DNA of 24,976 nucleotides, taken from NCBI GenBank assembly GCA_029856525.1, contig JAHQXC010000010.1:1-24976 (forward strand), given 5' to 3'. Source of the stretch: Candidatus Odinarchaeia archaeon (lineage in GTDB: Archaea; Asgardarchaeota; Odinarchaeia; Odinarchaeales; Odinarchaeaceae). The notes beneath the pieces are model-generated. The model saw only the letters and a program-made list of their open reading frames with translations. It made no database searches and had not been told where the DNA came from. The position numbers were made by a program, and so were the translations under genes. Every line of letters starts with the position of its first letter. The first letter of the stretch is position 1. This document shows positions 15,305 to 16,021 of this stretch, piece by piece.

Positions 15305-15360
15305 TATAACACCCCGATCATATTAGAATCGATTAATACCGTGAAATAGTATACGATATT

Positions 15361-15375
15361 ATTTTAAACTTTTAA
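15361..15375 (-). promoter_or_regulatory. Probable psmA operon promoter (TAAAAG-TTTAAAAT)
   Basis: BRE-like A-tract plus TATA about 60 nt upstream of the ATG; GGGGTG SD next to the start. Confidence 0.4.
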
Positions 15376-15471
15376 TTAACGATTAACTGCATGCTTAATA
15401 AATATTTTTCAAACCGTTTTTTTAACACGATTACCATAACAATAATTGAAATAAATATATATAATTTGCCT

Positions 15472-15556
15472 TCTCAGCTTACTCAGCTGAGAGATGTCTT
15501 CTAAGCTTCGAAGCTTAGTAATGAGATTAAACCATCAGGATCAATGAATAATCTCA
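15472..15556. ncRNA. Three tandem stem-loops, possibly part of an sRNA or a structured 3' region
   Basis: TCTCAGCT/AGCTGAGA (15472-79/15485-92); perfect 18-nt palindrome CTAAGCTTCGAAGCTTAG (15501-18); TGAGATTA/TAATCTCA (15522-29/15549-56). Confidence 0.4.
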
Positions 15557-15579
15557 GCGAATTTTTAACATGTAAGCGA

Positions 15580-15653
15580 AATGTAGAGGTCCAATCGTCG
15601 CAGGCTCATCATCGTATTCAGACTGGGGTTGGCGGATTTCATCCCTCTACATT
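15580..15653 (-). ncRNA. Putative box C/D-like (K-loop-containing) small RNA
   Basis: Perfect 10-bp terminal stem enclosing GGGATGA (C-like), a 17-nt spacer, CTGA (D'), ATGATGA (C'), a 13-nt spacer and degenerate (T)GGA (D-like). Confidence 0.55.
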
Positions 15654-15685
15654 CTATATTTCAATTTTAACCGCTAAAAACTTTT

Positions 15686-16021
15686 CTAAATATCCAAGTA
15701 TTTCCTCTTAGCGTTTTTCATAGTCCCAGATACGCCTATAGTATAAATTGTAAGAGGTTTACCTGCTAGCTCGAATATGGAAGCGAAAGAAGCTCTGATC
15801 AATTGAACTGCATTATGCCTGCACTCTATAAGACCTTTTTTAGAATCCTCTTTATATACGTGAAGCCAGAGGTGGGTTTTACTAGCCCCAACCTCTCCGA
15901 ATAATTTCATAAGTTGGCTGGAGAGTATTTTTAAAACGTCTCTTTCACTTAGATCGCCGTCGTATAATACTTGAAAAGCTATATATCTTTTACGCGGTTT
16001 AACTTTTATTTCACCCACCAC
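15686..16021 (-). CDS. rnp2: RNase P protein Pop5/Rpp14
   Basis: PRKRYIAF, GLIECRH, IYTIGVSGTMKNA. Confidence 0.93.
   Translation of the reverse strand: MVGEIKVKPRKRYIAFQVLYDGDLSERDVLKILSSQLMKLFGEVGASKTHLWLHVYKEDSKKGLIECRHNAVQLIRASFASIFELAGKPLTIYTIGVSGTMKNAKRKYLDI

Follow-up and report, generated by a model that had tools for sequence, protein, structure and literature searches.

A probable box C/D sRNA gene behind pop5 in the exosome/RNase P superoperon of an Odinarchaeon, with guides for helix 89 and, ancestrally, for the P loop of 23S rRNA

The window analysed here is a stretch of 24,976 nucleotides, contig JAHQXC010000010.1 of assembly GCA_029856525.1 of a Candidatus Odinarchaeia archaeon. 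The source genome measures 1.32 Mb, has a GC content of 38% and is 93% complete; the class Odinarchaeia is represented by seven species genomes in two genera. The subject of this work is a short element on the minus strand, flanked by genes of the same orientation. According to Pfam, the upstream genes encode L15e, a PF01877 protein, Rpp30 and Pop5, and the downstream genes PsmA, SBDS, Rrp4 and the RNase PH subunit Rrp41. The exosome/RNase P superoperon in which the initial annotation had placed the element is thus recognizable on both sides. The stop codon of pop5 (UAG) lies at 15686-15688 (-), and 381 nt separate this gene from psmA.

The minus strand between 15653 and 15580 reads exactly as previously quoted, and the coordinates of every part were verified. 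In 5' to 3' order, it consists of one arm of a 10-bp inverted repeat, GGGAUGA, a 17-nt stretch, CUGA, AUACG, AUGAUGA, a 13-nt stretch, GGA and the 3' arm. The inverted repeat is perfect (AAUGUAGAGG / CCUCUACAUU) and UGGA directly precedes its 3' arm. A C-guide-D'-C'-guide-D layout defines the archaeal 2'-O-methylation guides, which are bound by L7Ae, Nop5 and fibrillarin. The features of the locus are as follows.

15674..15687, minus strand: predicted sRNA promoter, BRE-like plus TATA-like, about 26-29 nt upstream of the conserved stem
15681-15687, minus strand: BRE-like AGAAAAG, overlapping the pop5 stop codon (read directly)
15674-15680, minus strand: TATA-like UUUUUAG (read directly)
15583..15650, minus strand: probable box C/D sRNA gene, 68-nt conserved core; helix extendable to 15580-15653 in this genome; covariance model R1 match at 15582-15651 (93.7 bits, E 7e-21)
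15644..15650, minus strand: 5' arm of the terminal (C) stem, GUAGAGG, pairing with 15583-15589
15641-15643, minus strand: K-turn bulge G-A-U, from the family alignment
15636-15642, minus strand: variant C box AUGAAAU (consensus RUGAUGA), in the same alignment columns as the canonical AUGAUGA of homologs
15622..15635, minus strand: D' spacer and guide CCGCCAACCCCAGU, 14 nt, homologous to the P-loop guide of the family, ..CCGUCCCAGU
15618..15621, minus strand: D' box CUGA (read directly), its GA invariant in the family
15613-15617, minus strand: K-loop spacer AUACG (read directly), the most variable stretch within the genus
15606-15612, minus strand: C' box AUGAUGA (read directly)
15594..15605, minus strand: D spacer and guide GCCUGCGACGAU, 12 nt, forming a 12-bp duplex with positions 2564-2575 of the own 23S rRNA
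15590..15593, minus strand: variant D box UGGA (consensus CUGA); GA invariant, the first two positions varying and covarying with C-box positions 5 and 6
15583..15589, minus strand: 3' arm of the terminal stem, CCUCUAC, pairing with 15644..15650

The perfect 10-bp closing stem that had been described is present in this genome, while the genus keeps only seven of the ten pairs (GUAGAGG/CCUCUAC). The outer three pairs occur in this genome alone and may precede the transcription start. Within the genus, three congeneric genomes share the 70-nt core with 94-97% identity, and the promoter-like stretch is conserved likewise; beyond the 3' arm the alignment collapses at once and is not regained until near the psmA promoter, the flanks not being conserved. 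When the 396-nt pop5-psmA region was used as a query against 40 relatives, congeners matched throughout, whereas the other family of the class matched only over the candidate, with 77-78% identity. The conservation of the element is far beyond chance.

The BRE/TATA element is kept in the genus and occurs in the sister family too, there amid unrelated flanks (AAGUUUUUUAG). Furthermore, a purine run and a T/A-rich box are found at a like distance in most of the 30 homologs. Judged by the geometry of archaeal promoters, this element would be an independent promoter that starts transcription near G15650. A T-run terminator was not found 3' of the helix.

Two other stretches of the intergenic region deserve a description of their own. 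Directly 3' of the sRNA, at 15466-15560, there are three closely packed hairpins or palindromes that are unique in the genome and cannot be aligned even among congeners; judging from this pattern, they probably do not constitute a conserved RNA, and they may mark the end of sRNA or pop5 transcripts. Two permissive Rfam matches in this area, the C/D-like TtnuCD1 at 15481-15539 (E 6.7) and IS605-orfB-II at 15379-15523 (E 0.88), were rejected, the stretch being unique in the genome and unconserved in the genus. The upstream region of psmA, at 15305-15440, shows strong conservation over some 175 nt among the members of the genus. Two blocks within it, AAAUUAUAUAUAU and GAAAAAUAUUUAUUAAG, are TATA-like, and GAUCGGGGUGUUA, which is conserved, stands right before the AUG. 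This sequence conservation suggests that the proteasome/exosome half of the superoperon is either preceded by a long structured leader or served by tandem promoters.

To describe the structure, the covariance model R1 was built from the seven Odinarchaeial copies (alignment A1). Pairs were counted in a 30-sequence alignment (A2) that was fitted to the model, a procedure that favours the structure. In this alignment, all seven pairs of the terminal stem have changed on both sides across the 30 homologs, and 88% of the cells are paired. The covariation score of the stem amounts to 0.39, as against 0.12 for shuffled alignments (0 of 500 reach 0.39) and 0.05-0.11 for slid controls. Because A2 was fitted to the model, the stem of each sequence was also measured by itself, anchored only on the invariant GA dinucleotides. 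In this alignment-free check, which offsets the model-fitting bias only partly, the mean stem has 5.2 contiguous base pairs, compared to 1.2 for arms paired across different lineages.

The G.A and A.G pairs are invariant in 30 out of 30 sequences, at both kinks. On the outer side, the stem is followed by the GAU bulge and then by G.A, A.G, A.G and A-U pairs. The 3b-3n position is variable (A.G here, U.U in canonical members), and the 4b-4n pair, made up of C-box position 6 and D-box position 1, covaries (AU 9, GC 7, UA 5, CG 3 and GU 3), with the usual G-C being A-U in this copy. The stem, the 3-nt bulge and the tandem G.A pairs that make up the K-turn of a C/D sRNA are therefore all found, in combination with variant boxes. 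The family alignment requires a shift of three bases relative to the initial annotation, in which a C box GGGAUGA was paired flush with UGGA: such a pairing leaves no 3-nt bulge and hence no K-turn, and the alignment gives C as AUGAAAU and D as UGGA. The D'/C' K-loop, as had been proposed, can be read directly, with a canonical CUGA, a 5-nt loop and AUGAUGA, and its GA pairs are invariant in the family. The high variability of the AUACG spacer within the genus is as expected of a loop.

The long stem and the degenerate outer boxes, earlier considered as atypical, are real features, the C and D boxes keeping only their UGA/GA core. Their deviation is modest: the family as a whole has stems of 4-9 bp and D boxes of the type NNGA. 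Variation of K-turn sequences at positions 3 and 4, and models that miss unusual boxes, have been described for Pyrobaculum (PMC6009581).

Given the ACA in the 3' arm and the position of a long hairpin right behind a stop codon, it could be imagined that the element is an H/ACA-like pseudouridylation guide or just the terminator hairpin of the pop5 transcript. Both ideas are extremely improbable. The ACA takes part in the pairing of the terminal helix, and homologs have CAC or different bases in its place (CCUCCAC in the sister family); an internal pseudouridylation pocket between two helices is lacking. In addition, the minimum-free-energy fold is just marginally better than that of shuffled sequences (z = -2.0), which one would predict of a C/D RNA but not of an H/ACA hairpin. 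The H/ACA alternative that had been left standing earlier is accordingly dropped: with neither a single-stranded 3' ACA nor a pocket, the element does not belong to the H/ACA sRNAs. A terminator, for its part, would be expected to have a T-run after the helix, which is absent, and would not conserve two spacers complementary to rRNA.

The 16S and 23S rRNA genes of the organism are located on contig C11, and E. coli numbering was fixed by alignment to rrlH. The previously proposed antisense search of the spacers in the own rRNA was performed and yielded a match of the D spacer to helix 89. The D guide GCCUGCGACGAU forms a 12-bp duplex (10 Watson-Crick pairs and two G.U pairs) with positions 2564-2575 of the own 23S rRNA, the 5' strand of helix 89, at -24.2 kcal/mol versus -16.2 kcal/mol for the next rRNA site. 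Leaving aside its own antisense strand, this is the best non-self match of the guide in the 1.32-Mb genome. The nucleotide at N+5 is U2568 (E. coli U2460), in an A-U Watson-Crick pair.

Among the 14 genomes that hold both the sRNA and an LSU sequence, the 5' strand of helix 89 is the best LSU site of the D guide in 12, and compensatory guide/target changes are observed across these genomes at both target sites. For the D guide, UUGUCAC occurs with guide GUGACAA, and GUCGUGGGU with guide ACGAC. The strict N+5 position is U2460 in about two thirds of the homologs, including this one; in the rest, one extra base places it at G2459. The D guide most likely directs a predicted Um at the own U2568 (E. 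coli U2460), judging from its complementarity. We know of no report, in any organism, of 2'-O-methylation at the equivalent of U2460. In some of the Asgard genomes compared (G073, G043 and G110, with loci L055, L056 and L063), the 23S matches span 4.1-4.8 kb instead of about 3.0 kb, which implies large LSU insertions or introns.

The D' guide is more difficult to assign. Its duplex with the own P loop consists of 7 bp and 3 bp, separated by a 1x2 internal loop (-18.3 to -18.5 kcal/mol), and places N+5 at the own G2356, which corresponds to E. coli G2251. At -18.3 kcal/mol, this duplex does not stand apart from those with three other 23S sites (-17.8 to -17.9 kcal/mol). The ancestry of the guide is clearer. 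In 13 of the 14 genomes with both sRNA and LSU, the P loop is the best LSU site of the D' guide, and covariation is seen here as well (GGGGUGGC with guide GCCACCUC). The comparison of D' targets covers relatives outside the sister family (G004-G006), the LSU of which is not assembled.

For a C/D sRNA, the reference is a total length of about 50-70 nt with two spacers of around 12 nt; the D spacer has 12 nt and the core 68 nt, and the D' spacer has 14 nt. The latter length is found in both Odinarchaeial genera, and the D' spacers of the other 23 homologs are mostly 12-13 nt long, with four of 10-11 nt and two of 14 nt. In the middle of the old P-loop guide there is an extra A in the sister family, where the guide reads GACCCCAGU (G004-G006), and an AA-type mismatch in the own genus. 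By sequence, the D' guide is a descendant of a P-loop G2251 guide. Its pairing with the P loop is weak because the spacer has grown to 14 nt; the Odinarchaeial guide probably still pairs there, weakly, and its target is uncertain. The suggestion that the element might be an orphan guide does not hold in view of the D guide, with 12 bp to helix 89, the best non-self match and covariation with the rRNA, and of the descent of the D' guide from a P-loop guide.

An alternative for the same C/D sRNA is that its D' guide has been retargeted in Odinarchaeia, away from the P loop and towards methylation of the own 23S G1110 (about E. coli 995), through a perfect 9-bp duplex with positions 1106-1114 (ACUGGGGUU). 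The nine contiguous Watson-Crick pairs of this duplex start from the base next to D', and pairing continues into the D' box itself. Specific to the genus is a change from G to A in the guide, which converts a G.U to an A-U pair at 1106-1114 and costs the pair with C2254 of the P loop. The stability of the duplex, -16.8 to -17.8 kcal/mol, is near the -18.3 kcal/mol of the P-loop pairing. Nevertheless, the P loop is still the top-ranked rRNA site of the own D' guide, the relatives (13 of 14) point to it by homology, and one lineage (G075) combines the same rRNA sequence with a perfect P-loop guide. Matches of 9-11 bp to the D' guide also occur at least 14 times elsewhere in the genome, so that the match at 1106-1114 is not distinctive. 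Retargeting is on balance unlikely. The 10-11-bp genomic matches of the D' guide are not near tRNAs, a weak check since aragorn called only 10 tRNAs. In summary, a complementarity of at least 9 bp with a Watson-Crick pair at N+5 is present in the D guide, and the D' guide is ambiguous in this respect, its options being 7+3 bp with the P loop and 9 bp with 1106-1114.

A different function could be imagined for an RNA with these kinks. Archaeal RNase P proteins work together with L7Ae. The element lies in sense orientation right behind pop5, in an operon encoding such RNase P proteins; both of its outer boxes are degenerate and its D' spacer is over-long. Binding of L7Ae to K-turns in mRNAs has been reported (PMC5539422). 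It might then be a K-turn RNA that no longer guides methylation, acting as an L7Ae-binding regulatory or processing element (in the pop5 3' UTR or the psmA leader) or purely as a chaperone of rRNA folding. We consider this very unlikely. The D guide keeps its 12-nt spacer, its Watson-Crick pair at N+5 and its 12 bp with helix 89, and it covaries with the rRNA across lineages, all of which would be difficult to account for if the RNA were not a guide. Moreover, the element has its own conserved promoter-like element, its flanks are unconserved, and the copy of the sister family, about 6 kb away from pop5, has the same structure.

The protein partners of a guide RNA are encoded in the genome. 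Genes for fibrillarin (PF01269, 318.7 bits) and Nop5 (PF01798, 221.6 bits) are adjacent on contig C94, and two genes of the L7Ae family, with PF01248 matches, are found on contigs C27 and C35. These genes, like the covariation between guides and targets, are expected for a C/D guide. We consider 15583-15650 (-), with a probability of roughly 85%, as the independently transcribed gene of an archaeal box C/D sRNA with guides for helix 89 of 23S rRNA (D) and, ancestrally, for the P loop (D'). The sequence, its conservation and covariation, the complementarity to rRNA and the protein genes are observed, and from these we infer transcription, RNP assembly and methylation. The initial reading as an unannotated C/D-box, K-loop guide RNA agrees with the homologs found by the covariance model, the covarying stem and the match to rRNA.

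The sRNA would then be transcribed from its own promoter, which overlaps the pop5 stop codon. The RNA would fold with a 7-bp terminal stem and a K-turn formed by AUGAAAU and UGGA, and CUGA and AUGAUGA would make up its internal K-loop. By analogy with characterized archaeal sRNPs, L7Ae would bind both kinks and two Nop5-fibrillarin dimers would assemble. Each guide would pair with 23S rRNA and thereby select for 2'-O-methylation the nucleotide that faces its fifth base upstream of D or D'. The D guide, paired with the 5' strand of helix 89, would thus lead to Um at the own U2568, and the D' guide, through its weak pairing with the P loop, would act on the own G2356 (G2251). Since both sites belong to the peptidyl-transferase region, the RNA may also aid folding there during ribosome assembly.

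The sRNA is not restricted to this organism. With model R1, exactly one copy per genome is found in seven out of seven Odinarchaeia genomes (E 1e-19 to 1e-21), and copies are present in 29 further genomes of the 151 sampled from the phylum (E<=0.1). Many of the phylum homologs have textbook boxes (AUGAUGA...CUGA...AUGAUGA...CUGA) and 12-nt spacers. A pattern scan of genome contigs, which gave mostly random matches in GC-rich bacteria and of which only the archaeal rows were used, adds public records of the sRNA in MAGs of Odinarchaeota, Baldrarchaeota, Bathyarchaeota and Thermoproteales. Conservation in relatives, on which the earlier interpretation had been made to depend, is evident: the core, the UGA/GA of the boxes and the stem are kept, and the linkage to pop5 exists in the genus as well as in other families.

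The closest known RNA is Sac-sR110, a box C/D sRNA of Sulfolobus acidocaldarius detected by RNA-seq (Dennis et al. 2015, BMC Genomics 16:632; PMC4644070, Additional file 1). As judged by eye, it has the same two guides in the same order, with the P loop addressed by D' and helix 89 by D. Its D' guide CGCCGCUCCAGU compares with ..CCGCUCCAGU or ..CCGUCCCAGU in Asgard homologs, and its D guide CAACGCGACGAG with CUCGCGACGAG or GCCUGCGACGAU. The Odinarchaeial copy differs from Sac-sR110, which has a canonical C box (AUGAUGA) and D box (CUGA), 12-nt spacers and, in the sequence listed, no long terminal stem. The targets of Sac-sR110 are given there as 'NP NP', that is, not predicted (PMC4644070). 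The same source predicts guide-directed methylation of G2251 in three archaea. Its Additional file 1 also contains Tte sR107, Neq sR04 and Iho sR410, which have a GUCCCAG-type P-loop guide combined with an unrelated second guide; in Tte sR107, the P-loop guide is served by D and not by D'.

Orthologs from Asgard archaea and Bathyarchaeota (for example L036, L043, L039 and L069) share the architecture, both guides and mostly a promoter-like element. They have AUGAUGA/CUGA or near-canonical boxes, D' spacers of 12-13 nt and a continuous P-loop duplex of 10-11 bp; in contrast, the Odinarchaeial copies have AUGAAAU/UGGA or AUGAUAG/UAGA boxes and a D' spacer of 14 nt. The sRNA thus is an unannotated but ordinary member of a family common to Asgard and TACK archaea.

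Standard models miss the Odinarchaeial copies because of the drift of their C and D boxes. At gathering thresholds, Rfam yields no match in the window; at permissive E-values, SNORD31 (E 1.5) and sR18 (E 6.2) are at chance level and were rejected. The generic Pyrococcus box C/D model RF00095 (snoPyro_CD) has the same order and spacing of boxes. This copy scores 12.2 bits with it and three canonical homologs score 31-38 bits, all of them under the gathering threshold of 45 bits, so that routine annotation misses the sRNA. Over the whole own genome, the best match of RF00095 has an E-value of 1.56, and a Sulfolobus control is likewise devoid of matches over the cut-off.

A strict canonical C/D regular expression gives only one match in the genome. 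A looser scan that combined K-turns with rRNA matches, neither exhaustive nor validated, resulted in six candidates, including this sRNA and one with a long stem on contig C11. The latter candidate (39268-39316, +) combines a terminal stem of 12 bp with the variant boxes GAUGAUAU...UUGA and matches 16S and 23S rRNA over 10-11 bp; it is adjoined, on the other strand, by a canonical C/D sRNA at 39349-39405. Long terminal stems and degenerate outer boxes may be a habit of this genome.

The linkage with pop5 extends well beyond the genus. The sRNA is found 50-170 nt 3' of pop5, in the same orientation, in the own genus and, elsewhere in the phylum, at ten loci that represent at least seven other families. 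In one Asgard lineage (L035, G028) and in a Bathyarchaeota MAG (L069, 5629-6036), it is convergent with pop5; at these two loci, the neighbourhood is retained and the orientation of the sRNA relative to pop5 is flipped. In Baldrarchaeum, the sRNA adjoins psmA, and in the sister family of Odinarchaeia, it is located about 6 kb away from pop5 with its structure unchanged. In the literature searched, no paper was found that deals with C/D sRNAs of Asgard archaea or mentions an sRNA within the exosome superoperon, an absence that is no proof in itself.

A more far-reaching interpretation would combine two propositions: that the archaeal exosome/RNase P/proteasome superoperon has included this sRNA gene since ancient times, as an RNA member so far overlooked whose linkage to pop5 reaches from Bathyarchaeia to many Asgard lineages, and that the Odinarchaeial D' guide was re-aimed, by the 2-nt expansion of its spacer, from the universally methylated G2251 of the P loop to a new site in 23S rRNA. 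Taken together, they are distinctly improbable. If they were true, G2251 would be left to another enzyme, and the retargeting of a guide would have been caught in the act in a close relative of eukaryotes.

With respect to the biology of these organisms, the sRNA enlarges the gene set of Odinarchaeia by a box C/D guide RNA that had not been annotated, and the understanding of C/D sRNAs in general is unchanged. The family to which it belongs spans many Asgard lineages and TACK archaea (Bathyarchaeota, Thermoproteales and, with Sac-sR110, Sulfolobus). For Sac-sR110, predicted targets can now be supplied, namely the P loop (G2251) and helix 89, which both belong to the peptidyl-transferase region; they are deduced from the likeness of the guides rather than from a fit to the Sulfolobus LSU. 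The linkage of the sRNA with pop5 in the exosome superoperon, which is kept across classes, is a modest extra that is possibly of specialist interest. Finally, the Odinarchaeial copies show to what extent C/D boxes can drift, with only UGA...GA being kept, while covariation preserves the K-turn.
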